Source: Gammaproteobacteria bacterium
Lineage (GTDB): Bacteria; Pseudomonadota; Gammaproteobacteria; Ga0077536
NCBI GenBank assembly: GCA_009692365.1
Contig: SHZJ01000002.1
Span: 52,692-116,691, forward strand
Direction of reading: 5' to 3'
Length of the DNA: 64,000 nucleotides
Below the pieces are notes generated by a model, which worked only from the letters and a program-made list of their open reading frames with translations, had not been told where the DNA came from and made no database searches. Made by a program: the position numbers and the translations under genes. Below, piece by piece: positions 1 to 9,308 of this stretch (positions within the stretch are counted from its first letter, which is position 1; every line of letters begins with the position of its first letter).

Positions 1-819
1 GTATTTTAGATCCCGACCCGCTTTTTGCGCCGCACGCTGACCGGCTTCAAAGTGACCCTTGACCACTTCGGGGTGGGTCATGATGGTCACCGGTACGACG
101 CCGCGCTCCATGCCCCAGACGATCGAGCGCTCGGAGGTGGCGAACGGCATGAACATATCCGGCACCTGTTTGTTGAAGGTCGGCGGGGCGATGCCAATTT
201 CCACGATGTCGTTGTTCTCGTTGAGACCCTGGCCGTACTTCGCGGCCACCTCGTGGGCCAGCCACTTGATGGGTTTACCCGGGATCTGCCAGTGTTTGCC
301 TTGGAAGCTGAAGGTGTCGTGGGTCCAGGCCTTGAGCAGAATTTCGAAATGCTCTTCAAACAACGAGCGCTTGAGCTCTTCGTAGTCGGCCCCTTCGCCT
401 GGCTCTTGCAGACCTACCTGCTGACCCAGCACGTTGACCCAGCGCGGCTGATAACCACGCGCAAAGCCGGCAAAAGTCCGGCCCTGCAGCATCTGGGAAA
501 TCATCGCGATGTTTTCGGCCAAGTTGATAGGGTTCTGCGAGGGCAGCACGTTGCCCAGCTGGCCGAACTTCATGTTCTTGGTCTGCATGCCAAAATACAG
601 GTCGAGGATCACCGGGTTGGTCGAGACTTCCTCGCCCTCGATGTGAAAGTGATGCTCGGTAAAGCCAGCGCCGTAGTAGCCCTGGCCGTCCATGTAGATG
701 ACCTGCTCGCCGATTTCTTTGAGCATCCGCTGGTATAAATCGGTCCGCTTGCCGGCCATGCCCTTCAGAATTTCTTCTTTGGTGCCAACGGACGGCAGAT
801 AAAATGCGCCAACTTCCAT
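1..819 (-). CDS. Luciferase-like (LLM family) flavin-dependent monooxygenase, 3' end truncated by the window edge. Start ATG is the complement of 817..819.
   Basis: The minus-strand translation reads MEVGAFYLPSVGTKEEILKG...HHFHIEGEEV...IAPPTFNKQVPDMFMPF, which fits the TIM-barrel LLM family. A strong RBS (GGAGGAGAAGAAG) precedes the ATG. The plus-strand ORF 25..738 in the track is its antisense shadow. Confidence 0.7.
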   Translation of the reverse strand, partial: MEVGAFYLPSVGTKEEILKGMAGKRTDLYQRMLKEIGEQVIYMDGQGYYGAGFTEHHFHIEGEEVSTNPVILDLYFGMQTKNMKFGQLGNVLPSQNPINLAENIAMISQMLQGRTFAGFARGYQPRWVNVLGQQVGLQEPGEGADYEELKRSLFEEHFEILLKAWTHDTFSFQGKHWQIPGKPIKWLAHEVAAKYGQGLNENNDIVEIGIAPPTFNKQVPDMFMPFATSERSIVWGMERGVVPVTIMTHPEVVKGHFEAGQRAAQKAGRDLKY

Positions 820-1070
820 CTTCTTCTCCTCCAAATTTCTACGCGGCGCGTCTGCGGTCGGGCGGCGCGCCAGCCATTTTAAAGTGATCCCAAGCCTAAG
901 CATGCTACGGCGGCGGGGAAATTTCGAGCGTTAGTAAGCCAAAGCACGACCCAGCGCGCACTTAGCGGGTGCGCTTGACGTTGATTGTCGCATTCTGAGA
1001 CAGTTAGGCTCACCGTCGCGGGCTCGCGCCCGCGCCAGATTTAAGCACAGCACACGGCACCCTCGCCCCC

Positions 1071-3017
1071 ATGGATATTCACAGCTTTGGCCGGACTCCC
1101 CGCGAAGCCGACCGGGTTTACCGCAAACAAGTCGAGCGCGCCTGGCTGGCCCTGGTGGAACGCGGCGGCGTCATCGACCCCGGCGTGCGCGATTTTATCC
1201 GCGACTCCTGGACCCGCTGCCTGTCGCTGGGCGTGGAGCCCGTGGCCCAGCGGCCCACGCTGCAAGGCGCGGGCGCGGCTTTAGAGCGGTTGTGCGACAG
1301 CAACCGGGAGCTGCTGCAGGCGTTTCAAAATACTTGGCGGGTGCTGGGTGATATTTTGGCCGGCACCCAAAGTTGTCTGGTGGTCGCGGACGCCACCGGC
1401 ACGCTGCTGGAGGTGTGCGGCAGCCCGGTAGTGGTCGACCGCGGCGCCCGCGATTGCCTAAGCCCCGGCTACCACTGGAGCGAGTTGAGCGGCGGCACCA
1501 ACGCCATCGGCACGGCGATCGCGCTCAACAGCCCGGCGGAAGTGCACAGCGCCGAGCACCTACTCGCGGTGGCGAAAATCTGGAGCTGCTCGGCCGCGCC
1601 GGTGCGCGACCACGTGGATGGCCACTTGGTCGGGGTGGTGGACGTCACCAGTTTTGGCGACAGTCATCAACAACACTGCCTCGCCTTGGCCGTGACTGCA
1701 GCCCATCAGATTGAAGCAACCCTGCGCTCTCGCGAGCTCGCACGCGCCGTGCAGCTACTCCATTGGTATCAATCACAGGCCTCGCGCTGGCCCCATCAGG
1801 CCGCGGTGCTGCTCGACCACCAGGGGCGGGTGCTGAGTGCCAACGCGCTCGCCCGCACGCTTTTCGGGGATGGTCGCGACCACACCCCGCTGGAACGCGG
1901 GCGCCCCTTCATGGTGGTGCGCGGTGAGCCGACGCTGGCCCACTGCACCGCCGCTCTCCCGCGCGGCATGCGGGCCGTCGCGTTGGAAGCCCATGCGGGG
2001 CGCGAGTGCGCGTGGGACGGTGGCGTGTTGGTCGTGGAACCGCTGCGTGGGCGCCGCCGCGCGGCCGCGCAGCCCGTCACGCCCGCGCCAGACCCGTTCC
2101 CGGGGATAGTGGGCAATCACCCCGCGCTGGTGGAAATCAAGCGCCAAGCGGCGTGCGTGGCGCAGGCGCTCGCACCGGTCTTGCTGCTGGGGGAAGCGGG
2201 CGTCGGCAAAACCCTGTGGGCGCACCACATTCATCAGGCATCCCCGGCCGCCAACGGGCCTTGGGTCGTGGTCAACTGCGCGCAGCTGCCGCACGCGCTA
2301 GCCGCCGGCGAACTGTTCGGTGATGAAGCAGGGCCGGGCGGGCGGGCGGGTAAATTTGAGCAAGCTAACGGCGGCACACTATTGCTCGCGCAGATTGACG
2401 AATTGCCTGTGGAAGTTCAGGCGGGGGTGCTCAGGTTGGTGCAAGAAAACGTCGTGGTGCGCGTGGGTGGCCAGCGGGAGCGCCCTCTCCGGGTCCGCCT
2501 AATCGCCACCAGCCGTCACGACTTAGACCACGCCGTGGCGGCGGGGCGCTGCCGGCAGGATTTGCTAGAGCGCCTCCGAGTGCTCAGCCTGCGACTCCCC
2601 GCCCTGCGCGACCACCCGGAGGATTTACCCGCGCTGGTCCGCCATCTGCTGACGCAAATCGAGGTGACCTACGGCTTGGGCACACGCCACGCCGGTCCAG
2701 AGCTCCTCACCGTCTTGGCCGGCGCGCCGTGGCCGGGCAATGCGCGCGAGTTGCGCCGATTACTCGAGCGCCTGTATGTGCTGAGCGAGCACGCCCTGCT
2801 GACGCTGCAGCATCTGCCGGCAGACTTCCCCCGCCAACCGCCGCCCGCGGGCGCCCAACGCCCGGCCCGTGCGCCCCAGCTCATCAGCACTTTGGAGCGC
2901 AAAGCCATCGAGGCTGCGCTCGCGAGTCACGGTCGCAACCTCTCGGACGTCGCCCGCCGGCTGGGGATCTCGCGCAGCACGCTGTACCGGAAAATGCAGC
3001 GCTACGACGCGGGCTAG
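1071..3017 (+). CDS. AcoR-type transcriptional regulator of the bacterial enhancer-binding protein family: N-terminal GAF-like sensory domain, central AAA+ domain, C-terminal Fis-type helix-turn-helix.
   Basis: N-terminal VIDPGVRDFIRDSWTRCLSLGVEP is the typical AcoR-family motif. Walker A GEAGVGKT is present. The C-terminal LSDVARRLGISRSTLYRKMQRY is a Fis-type HTH. The expected GAFTGA loop reads GDEAGPGGRAG and the Walker B position reads LLLAQIDEL. Confidence 0.8.
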   Translation: MDIHSFGRTPREADRVYRKQVERAWLALVERGGVIDPGVRDFIRDSWTRCLSLGVEPVAQRPTLQGAGAALERLCDSNRELLQAFQNTWRVLGDILAGTQSCLVVADATGTLLEVCGSPVVVDRGARDCLSPGYHWSELSGGTNAIGTAIALNSPAEVHSAEHLLAVAKIWSCSAAPVRDHVDGHLVGVVDVTSFGDSHQQHCLALAVTAAHQIEATLRSRELARAVQLLHWYQSQASRWPHQAAVLLDHQGRVLSANALARTLFGDGRDHTPLERGRPFMVVRGEPTLAHCTAALPRGMRAVALEAHAGRECAWDGGVLVVEPLRGRRRAAAQPVTPAPDPFPGIVGNHPALVEIKRQAACVAQALAPVLLLGEAGVGKTLWAHHIHQASPAANGPWVVVNCAQLPHALAAGELFGDEAGPGGRAGKFEQANGGTLLLAQIDELPVEVQAGVLRLVQENVVVRVGGQRERPLRVRLIATSRHDLDHAVAAGRCRQDLLERLRVLSLRLPALRDHPEDLPALVRHLLTQIEVTYGLGTRHAGPELLTVLAGAPWPGNARELRRLLERLYVLSEHALLTLQHLPADFPRQPPPAGAQRPARAPQLISTLERKAIEAALASHGRNLSDVARRLGISRSTLYRKMQRYDAG

Positions 3018-3072: not shown

Positions 3073-4491
3073 TCACCAGCCCCCGCCCAGCGCGCGAATC
3101 AGCGCCACGCTCGCCAGCACTCGCGCGCCGCTAATTTGCTGGGTCTGACGTTCCACCAGCAGCGTGAGTCGCTGGGCTTGGAGAACTTCCAGGTAACTCG
3201 TGGCACCGGCATCGAAGCGCTGCTGCGCAAGCTGCTGGGCGCGCGTGGCCGCGGCTAGCGTATTGGCCACCGTATCGTGCTGCTCCGCCAGCGTGCGCAA
3301 CGCGACCAGCGCGTCTTCCACTTCGCGCACGGCGTTCAATATTTGCTGACGATAGAGCGCCGTTTCTTCTCTTAGCGCGGCTTGCGCGCGCTCCAGATTG
3401 GCGGCGTTGCGGCCGCCGTCAAAGATTGGCTGTACCAGCAGCAAGCCGGCGAGCGGCCCCAAGGCCCAAGTGCGGGCCGACCAGGCAAACAGTTTGCCGA
3501 TGTCGTCCGCCACAAAAGAGGCATCTGCGGTGAGGTCGAGCAGCGGATAAAAAGCCGCTTTGGCGACCCCGATGCGCGCGTTGGCGGCTTCCATCCGCCG
3601 TTCAGCCGCGGCGATATCCGGGCGTCGCTCCAGCAAAGTGGAGGGCAGGCCCGGCGGCACTCGGGGTGGGGTGGCGGCGAGCGGGGCGGGCGTCAGCGCG
3701 AACGCGGCGGGGGCGCGCGCCAGTAAAATTGCCAGCGCGTGTTCGTCCTGTGCCCGCGTGCGCTCCACCCCGATGAGCTCGGTGCGCAGGGCTTGGAGTT
3801 CGGCTACGGCGCGCACCAGGTCGACATCGCTCACTTCCCCGGCGAGCGCCCGGCGGGCGTCCAGTGCGAGGGTGTCGCGGCGCAGGTGCAGGGCGGTGTT
3901 CAGTACCGCGAGTTCGGCATCGGCAAGACGAATGAGAAAATAGGTGCGCGCGACTTCCGCTTGGAGGGCGAGCAGAAAAGATTGGTACAGGGCTTGCTGC
4001 CCACTGAAATCAGCGTCCGCCGCGCGCACGCTGTCGCGCACCCGCCCAAAGAGGTCCACCTCATAGCTCAGCGCCGCGCCGAAAGTGTAGCGGTCGTAAG
4101 GCGCCAAGTCGGGGTCGCCGCGCAAACCCGGGCCCACGTTGGCGGACTTACCGGCGGCGGCCCCGGCGCCAAAATCGACGCGTGGCAGCTGCGCGGCCGC
4201 CGCCGTTTTCACCAGCGTCCGGCTTTGCTCGACGCGGGCGGCGGCGGCGGCCAGGTCGAAGTTCGCGCTAGTGGCATCGCGCAGCAGCGCGCTGAGCACC
4301 GGATCGGCGAAAACCTCCCACCACGCCCCACGCGACAATGCGTCGGCGGGATCGGCGGGCGTCCACTGACCCTCAATGGCGGGGCTGGCTTCTTTCCAGT
4401 TCTCGGGCACGCCGCTCGCCGGGCGTTCCAACGGTGGCGCGAGCGAGCAGGCGCCTAGCGCGAGCACCACCCCACACCAAGCCAGTTTCAT
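3073..4491 (-). CDS. RND efflux outer-membrane factor lipoprotein, NodT/OprM family.
   Basis: Lipoprotein signal MKLAWCGVVLALGACS. The length and the repeated coiled-coil/beta-barrel halves are typical of the outer membrane factor family. Its 4-bp overlap with the upstream RND pump gene (4488..4491) implies co-transcription. Confidence 0.85.
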   Translation of the reverse strand: MKLAWCGVVLALGACSLAPPLERPASGVPENWKEASPAIEGQWTPADPADALSRGAWWEVFADPVLSALLRDATSANFDLAAAAARVEQSRTLVKTAAAAQLPRVDFGAGAAAGKSANVGPGLRGDPDLAPYDRYTFGAALSYEVDLFGRVRDSVRAADADFSGQQALYQSFLLALQAEVARTYFLIRLADAELAVLNTALHLRRDTLALDARRALAGEVSDVDLVRAVAELQALRTELIGVERTRAQDEHALAILLARAPAAFALTPAPLAATPPRVPPGLPSTLLERRPDIAAAERRMEAANARIGVAKAAFYPLLDLTADASFVADDIGKLFAWSARTWALGPLAGLLLVQPIFDGGRNAANLERAQAALREETALYRQQILNAVREVEDALVALRTLAEQHDTVANTLAAATRAQQLAQQRFDAGATSYLEVLQAQRLTLLVERQTQQISGARVLASVALIRALGGGW

Positions 4492-7400
4492 ACACCCGGC
4501 TCCGCCGAGGCCGTGACGCTCGGCGCGCTGGGGCGCCGCGCCAGCAGCACGTAGAACACCGGGGTCAGGAGCAGGCCAAACAGCGTCACCCCCAACATGC
4601 CGGAAAACACTGCAACCCCCATCGCACGGCGCATCTCGGCGCCAGCTCCCGTTGAGAGCACCAGCGGCAAGACGCCCATGATGAAAGAAATAGACGTCAT
4701 CAGGATGGGGCGAAAACGCAGCCGACAGGCCTCGAGCGCGGCCTTTACCGGACCGATGTCGGGCTCGTGAATTTCCCGATCGCGGGCAAATTCTACGATT
4801 AGGATGGCGTTTTTACAGGCCAGCCCCATCAAGACGAACATCGCGATTTGGGTAAAAATATTGCGGTCGCCGCCGGTATAAAGCACCCCGCCGATGGCGA
4901 ACAGCAGGCACAGCGGCACGATTAAAATAATCGCCAGCGGCAAGCGAAAACTCTCGTACAGCGCGGCCAGCACCAACAGCACGAGCAGCACACACAGGGG
5001 ATACACCAGCAGCGCGGTGTCGCCGGTGAGCAATTCTTGGTAGGTCAGCTCGGTCCATTCGTAGGCAATGCCACGCGGCAGAGTCTCGTTGAGGATGTTC
5101 TCCAAGATGGCCCGCGCCTGGCCCGAGCTGACCCCAGGCGCCGGTGCGCCGTTGATGTCGGCCGAGGGAAACGCGTTGTAGCGAATGGCGCGGTCCGGCC
5201 CAAAGGCGTGCAGCACATCGAGTAACGCCCCCAACGGCACCATTTCGCCGCTTTCATTGCGGGTTTTGAGCCGTGCGATATCCTCGAGGCTCGCGCGCTG
5301 GGGGGCGTCGGCCTGCACCACGACCCGGTAAGTTTTGCCGAAACGATTGAAGTCGTTGACGTACAACGACCCCAAATACACCTGCAGCGTGGCGAACAGG
5401 TCGTTGAGGTTGACCCCCATCTGTTTGGCTTTTTCGCGATCGATTGCGGCATTGAGCTGCGGCACATTGATTTGGTAGCTCGAGAACATGCCCACCAACT
5501 GCGGGGTTTGCCAAGCCCGCATGAGCACCGCCTGCAGCGCGTTGTACAGCACCTCGTCGCCCAAGCCGGCCTGGTCCTCCAGCTGCAGCTTAAAGCCGCC
5601 AATGGAGCCCAGCCCATCCACCGGCGGGGGCGTGAAAAACGCGATGAAAGCCCCCTGCACGGCCCCAAACTCTTGGTTGAGCTTGCCCGCAATCGCCCTG
5701 GCCGAGAGCTCGGGCGCACGCCTGGCTTCAAACTCATCGAGATTGAGAAAAAGCAGGGCGGCGTTGGAGGCGTTCACAAAGCCGTTGATCGACAGCCCGG
5801 GGAAACCGACCACGTTCGCCACCCCCGGCGTCTTCAGAGCCAGCGCGGTCATCTGGCGCACGATTTTGTCTGTGCGGTCGAGCGACGCACCGTCAGGCAG
5901 CTGCGCAAAGCCGATGAGGTACTGCTTGTCGGGGCTGGGGATAAAGCCACCGGGCACCAACAAAAAGGCTTGCCAGGTCACCCAGAGCAAGCCGATGTAG
6001 ACGACCACCAGCAGCGCCTTGATCCGCATGAAGCGCGCGATAACCCAAGCGTAGCTGCGGGCACCGAGGTGAAAAAGATAGTCAAAAACGCGAAAAAACC
6101 AGCCGAACAGCTGGTCCATCAATTTGGTGAGCCCGTCTTTTGGCTCATCGTGACCGCGCAACAAGAGCGCCGCCAGCGCGGGCGACAGCGTGAGTGAATT
6201 GATGGCGGAGATCACCGCGGAGATCGCAATGGTCAGTGAGAACTGGCGGTAGAACTGGCCGGTCAAACCGCTGATGAACGCGATCGGCACAAACACCGCG
6301 CACAGCGTGAGCGCGATGGCGATGATGGGCCCGCTGACTTCCTGCATCGCCCGATAGCTGGCCGCCTTGGGCGCCAGACCCAGAGCGATGTTGCGCTCGA
6401 CGTTTTCCACCACGACGATGGCGTCGTCGACCACGATGCCGATCGACAGCACCAGACCAAACAGCGTGAGCGTGTTGATGGAAAAGCCGGCCACCAGCAT
6501 CACGCCAAACGTGCCGATGACGGAGACGGGCACAGCGGCGAGCGGAATGATCGACGCACGCCAAGTCTTCAAGAAAACGATGACCACCAGCGCGACCAGC
6601 AGCACGGCTTCGACCAGGGTGGTAATGACCGCCTTGATGGACTTCTGCACAAAACGCGTGGGGTCGTAAACAATCTTGTATTCGACTGCCTGCGGAAAGT
6701 CTTTTTTGGCTTCCTCCATCGCCGCACGCACCGCGTTGGAAAGCGCGATGGCGTTCGACAACGGCGCCTGAAAGGCCACTAGAGCAACCGCTGGGCTATC
6801 GTCTAACTGACTGCGCAGCGAGTAGTCGCTGGCGGCGAGTTCGATGCGCGCCACATCCCGCAGGCGCAGTACCCCGCCACGGGCAGAGGTTTTGAGAATA
6901 ATCCCACCGAACTCCGCCTCGGTCGTGAGCCGGCCCTGGGTGTTAACGGGCAGCTGAAACTGGATCGCGGTGGGTGCCGGCGAGCCGCCAATCAGACCCG
7001 CGGCCACCTGCTGATTTTGTTCCCGGATGGCGGTGACCACATCGGTCGCGGTGAGTTCGCGGGCGGCAAGTTTTTGCGGGTCGAGCCAAATTCGCATCGC
7101 GTAGTCGCCGGCACCAAAGACCATCACCTCACCCATGCCCTCGATGCGCCGCAGCTTGTCGCGGAGATTCAGCACCGCATAGTTGCGCAGGTACAGTTCA
7201 TCGTAATGGCCGTCGGTGGACAGTAAATGCACCACCATCGTAAGGTTGGGCGACTGCTTTTGGGTGACCACACCAATCTGGCGGACCTCCGGGGGCAGGC
7301 GCGGCAGCGCGCGCTGCACCCGGTTTTGCACCTGGGTCTCGGCGAGGTCGGGATTGGTGCCTATTTTGAAGGTCACCGTGAGATTCAACATCCCATCGGT

Positions 7401-7655
7401 GGTGGCCTGCGAGGACATGTAGAGCATGTCTTCAACGCCGTTGATTTGTTCTTCCAGCGGCGCTGCGACCGTCTCCGCAATAACCTTCGGATTGGCCCCC
7501 GGATAGTTGGCCGTGACGACGATCGATGGTGGCACGACGTCGGGATATTCCGATACCGGCAGCAGCGGGATGGCAATCAGCCCGCCGACGAAAATCGCGA
7601 TCGACAGCACCGCCGCGAAAACGGGCCGGTCAATAAAAGTCCGTGACAGGCTCAT
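4488..7655 (-). CDS. RND multidrug efflux pump, inner-membrane permease of the HAE1/AcrB/MexB family.
   Basis: 1055 aa with 12 transmembrane segments and two large periplasmic loops. AcrB-type motifs such as MSLSRTFIDRPVFA...ANYPGA are present. Confidence 0.9.
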   Translation of the reverse strand: MSLSRTFIDRPVFAAVLSIAIFVGGLIAIPLLPVSEYPDVVPPSIVVTANYPGANPKVIAETVAAPLEEQINGVEDMLYMSSQATTDGMLNLTVTFKIGTNPDLAETQVQNRVQRALPRLPPEVRQIGVVTQKQSPNLTMVVHLLSTDGHYDELYLRNYAVLNLRDKLRRIEGMGEVMVFGAGDYAMRIWLDPQKLAARELTATDVVTAIREQNQQVAAGLIGGSPAPTAIQFQLPVNTQGRLTTEAEFGGIILKTSARGGVLRLRDVARIELAASDYSLRSQLDDSPAVALVAFQAPLSNAIALSNAVRAAMEEAKKDFPQAVEYKIVYDPTRFVQKSIKAVITTLVEAVLLVALVVIVFLKTWRASIIPLAAVPVSVIGTFGVMLVAGFSINTLTLFGLVLSIGIVVDDAIVVVENVERNIALGLAPKAASYRAMQEVSGPIIAIALTLCAVFVPIAFISGLTGQFYRQFSLTIAISAVISAINSLTLSPALAALLLRGHDEPKDGLTKLMDQLFGWFFRVFDYLFHLGARSYAWVIARFMRIKALLVVVYIGLLWVTWQAFLLVPGGFIPSPDKQYLIGFAQLPDGASLDRTDKIVRQMTALALKTPGVANVVGFPGLSINGFVNASNAALLFLNLDEFEARRAPELSARAIAGKLNQEFGAVQGAFIAFFTPPPVDGLGSIGGFKLQLEDQAGLGDEVLYNALQAVLMRAWQTPQLVGMFSSYQINVPQLNAAIDREKAKQMGVNLNDLFATLQVYLGSLYVNDFNRFGKTYRVVVQADAPQRASLEDIARLKTRNESGEMVPLGALLDVLHAFGPDRAIRYNAFPSADINGAPAPGVSSGQARAILENILNETLPRGIAYEWTELTYQELLTGDTALLVYPLCVLLVLLVLAALYESFRLPLAIILIVPLCLLFAIGGVLYTGGDRNIFTQIAMFVLMGLACKNAILIVEFARDREIHEPDIGPVKAALEACRLRFRPILMTSISFIMGVLPLVLSTGAGAEMRRAMGVAVFSGMLGVTLFGLLLTPVFYVLLARRPSAPSVTASAEPGV

Positions 7656-7685
7656 GCTAGCGGGGAAGACACAAAAATGGACAAG

Positions 7686-9308
7686 TCAACGTGCCAATGC
7701 CGCCAGCGACCGCACCGAACGAGGCCAAGGCTGGGTGCTGCCGCGCAGTGCCGCCGGCAAAGCGGTGGCGGCGGTCTGCGCGCTGGCCAGAGTCGGATAG
7801 TGTCCGTAGAGCAGGACGTACCAAATTTGGCCGTCGCGCCGGGTCGCCAGCACGGCAGCCTGGCCGGCGAGCCCGTGACGGGCGAGGAATTTTTCAGCCG
7901 CCGGCCGCGTCGTCACGCCTAAAATCTGGAGCGCCCAGCTAGTGGGCGCCTGCTGGAGCAACCACGCGCTGGAATAGCCCACGACCGGGGACGCCGCCGG
8001 GGCCGCGGGGCTGGCGGCAACCGGGGCGGGGGTGAGCGCCGGGGCCGCGGGGCTGGCGGCAACCGGGGCGGGGGTGAGCGCCGGGGCCGCAGGGCTGACG
8101 GCAACCGGGGCGGGGGTGAGCGCCGGGGCCGCAGGGCTGGCGGCGAGGTCTGGCACCATGCTGACCAGTTCGGGCTTCACGACGGAGCCGGGCCGCACGC
8201 GCTGCAAACCGTTCACGACGATCTTCTCGCCGACGGCCAGCCCGCTCTCGATCACCCGCAGACCCTCGAAGGCGCGGCCAATCTGCACTGCCCGGTACTG
8301 AGCTTTATTAGCCGCATCGACAACCAAGACGTAGCGTTTGGTCTGGTCCGTGCCAATCGCGCCATCAAGGACCATCACCGCGCGCCGCGCGGCGCTGCTG
8401 CTGGCCAGCAGCACCCGGGCGAACAAGCCGGGCGTAAAGCGCCGCTCGGGGTTGGGTAGCTCCGCGCGCAGGCGCACCGTGCCGCTGCCAACGTCGATCT
8501 GGTTGTCGATAAACACCACTTTCGCCACGTGTGGCGCGCCCGTTTCGTTGGCGAGTCCCACGTGGACGTTCAAGCTGGCCGCGCGCCCATTGCGAATATA
8601 TTTAAGGTAGGTGCGCTCGTCGGCCTCAAAACTGACATAAATAGGGTCCAACGCCAGCAGGGTTGAGAGTACCGGGGAGTCCGGCGCATCCCCGCGAACC
8701 AGATTGCCGATGGTCACTTCGTCCTTACCCATACGCCCGGCCACGGGTGCCACGATGCGGGTGTAGGACAAATCGACCCGCGCGAGGGTGACGCGGGCGG
8801 CAGCGACTCGGCTGGCGGCGTCGAGCGTGGCAACCGCGGCGGCGGCGGCGTCGAACTCGCGCCGAGAAGTGGCCCGGTCGGGGAGCATTTTTTGTTGCCT
8901 GGCGAGTTCGATCCGCGCCAGCGCCAACTGCGCGGCAGTCTCGCCGACCGCCGCCTCGGCTTCCGCCAGACGGGCCGCAAAGGGCGCGGGGTCGATCAGA
9001 AACAACGGGTCGCCGGCGGCGACGTCAGCACCCGGGGTAAAATAAATAGCCTTCAGATACCCACCCACCCGAACCCGTAAATCCACCCGCTGCGTGGCTT
9101 CGAAACGACCGGCAAATTCATCCGTTTCGATGATGTCGCGCTCAATCGCGGCCGCCGCGGTGATCGGCGGTGGGCCGGCGGGTGCTGCCCCAGGACCACC
9201 CGCCGACGGGGGTGCCTTGCCGCACGCGGCGAGGATTACGGCCAGCAGCAAGACCACCCAACGGGCGCGTGCTGGCCGGCGCTCCTGCGTCACACGGGTC
9301 ATCATCAT
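7686..9308 (-). CDS. RND efflux membrane fusion protein (periplasmic adaptor) with a C-terminal proline/alanine-rich tandem-repeat linker and a SPOR-like peptidoglycan-binding domain.
   Basis: The adaptor core runs from the lipoyl/beta-barrel region to VVNGLQRVRPGSVVKPELV. It is followed by (SPAAPALTPAPVAA)x3.5. The last ~75 residues (WALQILGV...GQIWYVLLYGHYPTLASAQTAATAL) fit the SPOR fold pattern. Confidence 0.8.
   Translation of the reverse strand: MMMTRVTQERRPARARWVVLLLAVILAACGKAPPSAGGPGAAPAGPPPITAAAAIERDIIETDEFAGRFEATQRVDLRVRVGGYLKAIYFTPGADVAAGDPLFLIDPAPFAARLAEAEAAVGETAAQLALARIELARQQKMLPDRATSRREFDAAAAAVATLDAASRVAAARVTLARVDLSYTRIVAPVAGRMGKDEVTIGNLVRGDAPDSPVLSTLLALDPIYVSFEADERTYLKYIRNGRAASLNVHVGLANETGAPHVAKVVFIDNQIDVGSGTVRLRAELPNPERRFTPGLFARVLLASSSAARRAVMVLDGAIGTDQTKRYVLVVDAANKAQYRAVQIGRAFEGLRVIESGLAVGEKIVVNGLQRVRPGSVVKPELVSMVPDLAASPAAPALTPAPVAVSPAAPALTPAPVAASPAAPALTPAPVAASPAAPAASPVVGYSSAWLLQQAPTSWALQILGVTTRPAAEKFLARHGLAGQAAVLATRRDGQIWYVLLYGHYPTLASAQTAATALPAALRGSTQPWPRSVRSLAALAR
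7996..8145. repeat. Tandem 42-bp repeat of about 3.6 copies, encoding the Pro/Ala-rich linker of the adaptor protein.
   Basis: Units at 7996..8037, 8038..8079 and 8080..8121, plus a partial fourth. Unit sequence is gccggggccgcggggctggcggcaaccggggcgggggtgagc, with single-base variants. Confidence 0.9.

Follow-up and report, generated by a model that had tools for sequence, protein, structure and literature searches.

What becomes of an enhancer-binding protein (EBP), and of the gene it controls, once the residues through which such proteins engage sigma-54 have disappeared? This question is raised by a regulator gene and its divergent neighbour near the left edge of a 64,000-nucleotide stretch of gammaproteobacterial DNA, which we refer to at its full length as the window (contig SHZJ01000002.1 of assembly GCA_009692365.1, positions 52,692 to 116,691 of the forward strand). 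The encoded regulator has the architecture of a sigma-54 activator, and yet its sigma-54 contact loop and its Walker B acidic pair are both missing. We consider it probable that this protein is an atypical EBP homologue that no longer works through sigma-54 and that resembles DhaR of Escherichia coli in its design. Our interest lies less in this single gene than in the clade around it, whose members look like natural intermediates of sigma-54 loss.

The regulator and the parts of it that bear on this proposal are located as follows, where dN/dS denotes the ratio of nonsynonymous to synonymous substitution rates.

1071..3017, plus strand: regulator gene, 648 amino acids, with a MimR_N/GAF sensor, an AAA+ domain and a Fis-type helix-turn-helix (HTH) (open reading frame list, Pfam)
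1071..1745, plus strand: N-terminal sensory module MimR_N + GAF, residues 1-225 (Pfam GAF; dN/dS 0.09)
2106..2591, plus strand: AAA+ domain of the sigma-54-interaction type, residues 346-507 (PF00158, E 7.9e-43)
2190..2213, plus strand: Walker A GEAGVGKT, residues 374-381, intact (K380 invariant in 69/69 relatives examined)
2310..2351, plus strand: remnant of the L1 loop, ELFG-DEAGPGGRAG, residues 414-427 (alignments to FlrA, FlrC and CapR; family alignment; AlphaFold model)
2388..2393, plus strand: Walker B position, A440-Q441 instead of D-E (alignments; model)
2553..2573, plus strand: arginine fingers R495 and R501 (CRQDLLER), intact (invariant in intact and loop-deleted relatives)
2889..3005, plus strand: Fis-type helix-turn-helix HTH_8, residues 607-645 (Pfam E 1.7e-14; dN/dS 0.13)

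Pfam recognizes GAF (residues 81-218), Sigma54_activat (346-507), AAA_lid_14 and HTH_8 in this protein, and a public precomputed index adds PF26965 (MimR_N) at the N-terminus, whose sequence MDIHSFGRTPREADR is common to the homologues. Its AlphaFold (AF2) model has a mean predicted local distance difference test score (pLDDT) of 87, and Foldseek superposes the AAA+ fold on the corresponding domains of FlrC, FleQ, NtrC1 and PspF with a root-mean-square deviation of ~2 Å. Four contigs, from four samples, encode the identical protein, which excludes an assembly artefact.

A first-pass annotation of this DNA had proposed from a manual alignment that GAFTGA is replaced or shortened and that the Walker B acidic pair reads A-Q, and both proposals withstood formal alignment. 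The PF00158 profile matches 162 regulator residues against 167 profile positions, and pairwise phmmer alignments with solved EBPs place ELFGDEAGP--G---GRAGKFEQANGGTLLLAQIDELP opposite the motif region of FlrA, with FlrC and CapR aligning likewise. By profile and pairwise alignment alike, GAFTGA is replaced by DEAGPGGRAG in a loop that is ~5-6 residues shorter, a net deletion, and the Walker B D-E found in 37/37 intact relatives has become A440-Q441. In the AF2 model, L1 is reduced to a stub hairpin (residues 417-426), and a strand at 436-440 ends at A440. We found no intact GAFTGA or ELFG-type motif elsewhere in the 64-kb window and no shifted D-E. One candidate for a substitute acidic pair, D443-E444, lies three residues past Walker B and was rejected because E444 is the conserved E of ...DEIGEL... 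in all relatives; the position of the strand end at A440 in the model also rules it out. The protein keeps Walker A K380, as the earlier reading of GEAGVGKT had indicated, together with Glu-switch N402, both arginine fingers, which proved intact when checked, and sensor II R559. Thus, among the hallmarks of sigma-54 activators, the PF00158 domain, the Walker A lysine, the arginine fingers and the sensor II arginine are present, and GAFTGA, D-E and a -24/-12 promoter are absent. A PF00158 domain devoid of the sigma-54 contact motif is what characterizes the atypical, DhaR-like EBPs.

The missing promoter concerns the divergent gene, which encodes a luciferase-like flavin monooxygenase (LLM). 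Features of this gene and of the intergenic region are listed here.

1..819, minus strand: LLM gene, first 272 codons, running off the left edge of the window (Pfam Bac_luciferase)
819-817, minus strand: ATG start codon of the LLM gene (read from the sequence)
826..832, minus strand: Shine-Dalgarno sequence GGAGGAG, 6 nt before the ATG (read from the sequence)
891..943, minus strand: stretch corresponding to the -24/-12 promoter of the orthologues, with possible decayed remnants TTGGCTTACTAACGCTC at 943-927 and TAGCATGCTTAGGCTT at 906-891 (low confidence)
986..1002, no strand assigned: probable operator or upstream activating sequence (UAS), palindrome TGTCGCA-TTC-TGAGACA of the form TGT-N11-ACA (unique in the window; conserved in relatives)

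The LLM gene is the likely target of the regulator, since a conserved gene for an LLM of 405-409 amino acids also stands divergent to the regulator in ten related loci (L084, L086, L087, L089, L091, L093, L095, L168, L171 and L174); one further contig without DNA also shows this neighbourhood. The first-pass annotation had singled out the same gene, with its strong ribosome-binding site, which we place at 832-826, and had found no convincing -24/-12 element by eye. Our scan of positions 820-1070 agrees with that observation. On the LLM strand the closest approach to TGGCAC-N5-TTGC deviates at 3 positions, a score equalled by 63% of shuffles, and no site with ≤2 mismatches exists in this interval. 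The orthologous loci with an intact regulator present a different picture. In 6/6 loci whose regulator has GAFTGA and D-E, a sigma-54 promoter with 0-2 mismatches, directed towards the LLM gene (or towards a NUDIX-LLM pair), precedes the start codon by 66-117 nt.

L089, intact regulator: sigma-54 promoter TGGCACCAGTCTTGC (also given as TGGCACCAGTCTTGCC)
L091, intact regulator: sigma-54 promoter TGGCACCGCTCTTGC
L086, intact regulator: sigma-54 promoter TGGCATTGAAGTTGC
L087, intact regulator: sigma-54 promoter TGGCATTGAACTTGC
L093, intact regulator: sigma-54 promoter TGGCATGGCCGATGC
L095, intact regulator: sigma-54 promoter TGGTATCCCTCTTGC

The best matches at the five loci with a degenerate regulator have 3 (window), 3 (L084), 4 (L168), 4 (L171) and 2 (L174) mismatches. 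Relative to all orthologous loci with an intact regulator, the LLM gene of the window has lost its -24/-12 promoter. In L084 the promoter had been lost before any shortening of the loop, which still has its full length in that regulator. The distance of the possible remnants in the window to the ATG (71-107 nt) matches that of the sigma-54 promoters of the intact loci. MAFFT aligned the L089 promoter with 943-927, in an alignment that is ambiguous and cannot choose between 906-891 and 943-927.

The DNA recognition site tells of continuity. The palindrome at 986-1002, located 69-85 nt upstream of the regulator ATG, is the sole match to TGTYNCA-N3-TGNRACA in the 64-kb window. L084, L085, L088, L089, L091, L093, L094, L168, L171 and L174 carry the same palindrome, either between regulator and LLM gene or upstream of the regulator. 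Its presence in intact and degenerate loci alike means that DNA recognition was preserved as the promoter core altered. EBPs with a Fis-type HTH usually have a UAS of the type TGT-N10-12-ACA (PMC6615313). A palindrome of the TGT-N11-ACA class, TGTTTCATAGTGAAACA, also occurs in the dhaK-dhaR intergenic region of E. coli K-12 (NC_000913.3, positions 4956-4972 of our extracted locus L172). Two more small palindromes, at 956-974 and 918-925, lie between the operator and the LLM gene of the window, where they may serve to bind another protein or to bend the DNA. Of these two, GCGCAC-N7-GTGCGC is partly conserved in L084, and GAAATTTC is identical there, with similar A/T tracts in L093, L086, L168 and L174.

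How such a regulator could have arisen is best approached through its relatives. From the 241 homologues that a protein search yielded, we examined the best 120. About 50 of these share ≥44% identity with the window regulator, and all come from uncultured Gammaproteobacteria. A scan of a genome collection for close relatives gave a best match of only 42% identity and no cultured close relative. The orthologue comparison did not bear out the idea of a lineage-wide degeneration, which proved patchy and recurrent instead. GAFTGA and D-E are present in many relatives, and in many others between 4 and 10 residues of L1 are deleted, at differing boundaries. P0002, which at 76% identity is the closest of them, has a loop of full length with the sequence GAFMGA and T-D at Walker B, and distant orthologues are intact with sigma-54 promoters. 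In a bootstrapped neighbour-joining tree from which the motif columns were left out, the window regulator (P0001) pairs with P0002 (100%), apart from a 14-member loop-deleted clade (96%). Elsewhere in the tree, an intact trio (P0006, P0008 and P0010; 100%) is sister to the deleted P0004, P0011 and P0012 (94%), beside a further deleted clade (100%). Given this topology, and because a deleted loop cannot be regained, at least four independent L1 deletions are required. The deletion in the window regulator is recent and that gene's own.

The residues that survive loop loss form a consistent set. In the 37 intact relatives, the Walker A lysine, the Glu-switch asparagine, the Walker B D-E, both arginine fingers and the sensor II arginine are all 100% conserved. 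In the 28 loop-shortened relatives, K380, R495, D497 and R501 are likewise 100% conserved, and the Glu-switch asparagine is retained in 13/28, the Walker B aspartate in 21/28 and the sensor II arginine in 14/28. Comparison of the window regulator with the 76%-identical regulator of L084 gives a dN/dS of 0.20 overall, with 0.21 in AAA+ and 0.19 in the lid, and the sensor module, at 0.09, is the most constrained part. These values indicate that all domains are under purifying selection. The regulator would thus appear to be functional, with hydrolysis dispensable and the nucleotide-binding and interface residues indispensable.

Several further relatives show comparable changes. P0038 (locus L173) and P0037 read GEFNGA or GVFNGA for GAFTGA and G-Q at Walker B; they form a separate lineage, sister to the intact P0034, and represent another independent route to the same degeneration. 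L173 has no LLM neighbour, with a TonB receptor gene upstream and CMD and old-yellow-enzyme genes downstream. The more distant AcoR-like P0068 and P0069 (32-34% identity) show GSFAAA or GSFAA at this position, a loss of 4-5 residues and an unaltered Walker B D-E, and so loop loss in the family is not confined to the clade studied here. One metagenome-assembled genome (MAG), GCA_035325705.1 (DAOKZI01), carries two paralogues, namely L004 with an intact GAFTGA (42% identity) and the loop-deleted P0021 (L170), which adjoins an RND efflux operon and not an LLM gene.

Taken with the domain content, these observations suggest how the window regulator might work. It would bind the palindrome at 986-1002 as a dimer or higher oligomer, and its MimR_N/GAF module would respond to a small molecule, which is probably a substrate of the monooxygenase and of the ketone or alcohol type. 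The AAA+ domain would serve only as an ATP-binding oligomerization scaffold, with ATP bound and unhydrolysed. Walker B mutants of NtrC1 and PspF have been solved in the ATP-bound state (3M0E and 4QNR in the Foldseek listing), and thus Walker B-defective proteins can still bind nucleotide. From this position the regulator may control the LLM gene, and probably its own gene, through sigma-70-type RNA polymerase, as DhaR does at dhaKLM. The sigma-54-independent action suggested in the first-pass annotation is therefore one we also regard as probable, given the lost contact loop, the dead Walker B and the absent promoter.

A better precedent than TyrR and the NtrC of Rhodobacter, which were named at that stage, is E. 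coli DhaR, which matches in sensor, loop and Walker B. DhaR shares the order of an N-terminal GAF-type sensor, AAA+ and Fis-type HTH, and its sensor domain (4LRX) is the only PDB sequence relative of the N-terminal sensor region of the window regulator. Its loop is also short and lacks GAFTGA, and at the same alignment positions its Walker B reads E-K where the window protein has A-Q. The DhaR motif region reads EFIGGDRTDNENGRLSRLELAHGGTLFLEKIEYL and appears in the pairwise alignment as EFIGGDRTDNENGR... LFLEKIEYL. Both regulators are encoded divergently from their targets with a TGT-N11-ACA palindrome in between. According to the passage of PMC10084136 that cites Bachler 2005, DhaR is reported to control a sigma-70 promoter at dhaKLM, with no sigma-54-binding motif. 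However, whole-length alignment of the two proteins gives only 26% identity. The DhaR model NF008485 is the top NCBIfam match of the window regulator, scoring 287 bits where the cut-off demands 551, and the matches to all other equivalog models likewise fall far short of their cut-offs, so that the protein belongs to no named orthologous group. Orthology to DhaR was rejected on this score and on the neighbouring genes, which are the LLM gene and an RND efflux operon without dhaKLM. DhaR is controlled by binding of DhaK and DhaL, whereas the window locus has no dha genes and a flavin monooxygenase as its target; the signal of the window regulator is, unlike that of DhaR, probably a small molecule. 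Since intact GAFTGA relatives lie between both lineages, the losses in DhaR and in the window regulator are independent.

Other atypical EBPs place the protein in a wider context. TyrR, PhhR, HupR, HsfA, NtrX and VpsR form an accepted class with altered GAFTGA and often altered Walker B, whose members work with sigma-70 RNA polymerase or as repressors (PMC6158489). They share with the window regulator a PF00158-type AAA+ domain altered in these same ways, but have other sensors (ACT/PAS or receiver domains) and other regulons, and none is close in sequence. The canonical AcoR/MimR-type activators of acetoin, acetone and alcohol catabolism have the same domain order, including MimR_N and GAF, and the same type of UAS. 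Relatives at 30-50% identity among the homologues examined are labelled AcoR-like, 'acetoin/glycerol metabolism regulator' or EatR. These AcoR/MimR-type relatives have intact GAFTGA, D-E, Glu-switch asparagine and sensor II arginine, with sigma-54 promoters at their targets, whereas the window regulator has kept N402 and R559 and is without GAFTGA, D-E and the promoter. In actinobacteria, MimR itself probably operates independently of sigma-54. The initial designation as AcoR-type is apt for the architecture and not for the identity. An AcoR orthologue was rejected because no aco genes (acoABCL) are in the neighbourhood and no -24/-12 element is present. On sequence grounds, the window regulator seems to be a new, independently derived member of the atypical EBP class with DhaR-like architecture.

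Several observations weigh against control through a sigma-70 promoter that replaced a sigma-54 one. A sigma-70 consensus scan of positions 700-1200 returned nothing, and hence no convincing LLM promoter. Read by eye, the best -10-like hexamer for the LLM gene is TAAAAT at 881-876 on the minus strand, without a -35, and this assignment would put the operator near -125, which is far for a classical sigma-70 activator. The element GGGCACGGGGCTCGC of L174, with GG/GC, 2 mismatches and the expected distance, looks like a remnant at a locus whose regulator is degenerate. Furthermore, the association between promoter and regulator (≤2 mismatches in 6/6 intact versus 1/5 degenerate loci; Fisher p = 0.015) comes from only 11 loci that are phylogenetically non-independent. 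Alternatively, the protein might be solely a repressor or autoregulator that has kept DNA binding and ligand sensing. In that case it would shut down its own promoter and possibly that of the LLM gene as well, and transcription of the LLM gene would start from a new constitutive or otherwise controlled promoter. We regard this as unlikely, while recognizing that it accommodates a number of facts. The palindrome falls inside the spacer of a weak candidate regulator promoter read by eye (TTGATT 981-986, 18-nt spacer, TAGGCT 1005-1010), a location that would suit autorepression. It lies ~167 nt from the LLM ATG, and in L085 and L088, which have lost the LLM neighbour, it is still ~80 nt upstream of the regulator; NtrX, also an atypical EBP, acts as a repressor (PMC6158489). 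However, the candidate promoter is weak and is not called by the sigma-70 scan, and the pairing of regulator and LLM gene is kept in five degenerate loci. Moreover, purifying selection acts on both AAA+ and lid (dN/dS ~0.2), and a simple repressor has no obvious need of both.

The remaining alternatives strike us as far less credible. Participation as a non-catalytic partner, in mixed rings with an intact paralogous EBP that modulate a sigma-54 promoter elsewhere, had been raised in the first-pass annotation; the suggestion gained no support, and we judge it quite improbable. It would draw on the retained arginine fingers, which act in trans, and on the coexistence of a loop-deleted and an intact paralogue in the related MAG described above. 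Against this, the 64-kb window holds no second EBP, the regulator has its own conserved operator beside its own conserved target, and that target is without a sigma-54 promoter. Slightly less probable again is that the gene is a decaying, functionless relic on its way to becoming a pseudogene. Catalytic residues do decay across the clade, and the regulators evolve much faster than the target (40-76% versus 77-97% identity across orthologous loci). Nevertheless, the 648-codon frame is intact and identical in all four samples, the dN/dS values are low throughout, and conservation extends to the HTH, the operator, Walker A and the arginine fingers. The least probable proposal is that the protein still depends on sigma-54 through a non-canonical contact and a non-canonical promoter. 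The possible GG-containing remnants at 943-927 could be cited in its favour, but the contact loop and the hydrolysis residues are both missing and the best promoter match does not exceed chance expectation.

A broader proposal can be made about the clade of the window regulator. We tentatively entertain the possibility, which falls somewhat short of a firm expectation, that the clade records how one regulator-target pair has repeatedly been uncoupled from sigma-54, a process still under way. The sensor, the operator and the enzyme would have stayed fixed while the -24/-12 element was lost, then GAFTGA by at least four deletions and then the hydrolysis residues, with the AAA+ ring kept as a nucleotide-binding scaffold. 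The 76%-identical sister, with GAFMGA, T-D and no promoter, and the window gene would be successive stages of this process. To our knowledge, the known atypical EBPs are old, isolated lineages without close intact relatives. Here, one orthologous regulator-operator-target module exists in every state, from intact with a sigma-54 promoter, to GAFMGA/T-D without the promoter, to several independent loop-deleted forms. The clade therefore offers natural material for asking which goes first, the promoter or the activator, what purpose the AAA+ domain still serves, and by what means sigma-70 polymerase makes new use of an activator bound at a distant UAS. Should the rewiring proposal be true, the origin of atypical EBPs would become directly testable with natural intermediates. 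It has been suggested that such proteins may connect the sigma-54 class with the sigma-70 class in evolution (PMC6158489). On a practical level, the annotation 'sigma-54-dependent Fis family transcriptional regulator' would be wrong for the window gene and for ~28 related clusters.

The target itself is better conserved than its regulator, with a dN/dS of 0.04 between the window and L084 against the 0.20 of the regulator. On the full public contig the LLM gene encodes 408 amino acids and is monocistronic; beyond it lies a pyrimidine-biosynthesis block on the opposite strand, whose last gene is tail-to-tail with it. Matches of the LLM carry generic LLM names only. It is widespread in uncultured Gammaproteobacteria, and the sole named source among the matches listed is Panacagrimonas sp. 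The closest solved relative is 3,6-diketocamphane 1,6-monooxygenase (84 bits, nearly full length), a flavin-dependent type II Baeyer-Villiger enzyme. A ketone-type substrate of the LLM would fit a ketone- or alcohol-sensing regulator family, and we offer this as a lead only. In addition, an Rfam scan of positions 700-1200 found no RNA family, and thus nothing that points to a riboswitch or small RNA in the intergenic region.

An OEP-RND-MFP efflux operon lies downstream of the regulator in convergent orientation, and this synteny of regulator and efflux operon recurs in the window, L084, L085, L169 and L170. The loop-deleted regulators of L085, L088, L090, L169 and L170 have lost the LLM neighbour, and beside them are genes for a beta-CASP/metallo-beta-lactamase and a bacterial globin as well as an OEP-RND efflux operon. 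When positions 2320-5684 of L002 (contig SRR31412735_17658) are compared with 3073-9308 of the window, the outer-membrane-factor gene of L002 is followed directly by the gene for a 540-amino-acid membrane-fusion protein. The gene for the 1055-amino-acid RND pump (4488-7655 in the window; also in L001) is apparently missing from L002, which reflects either a strain deletion or an assembly variant.

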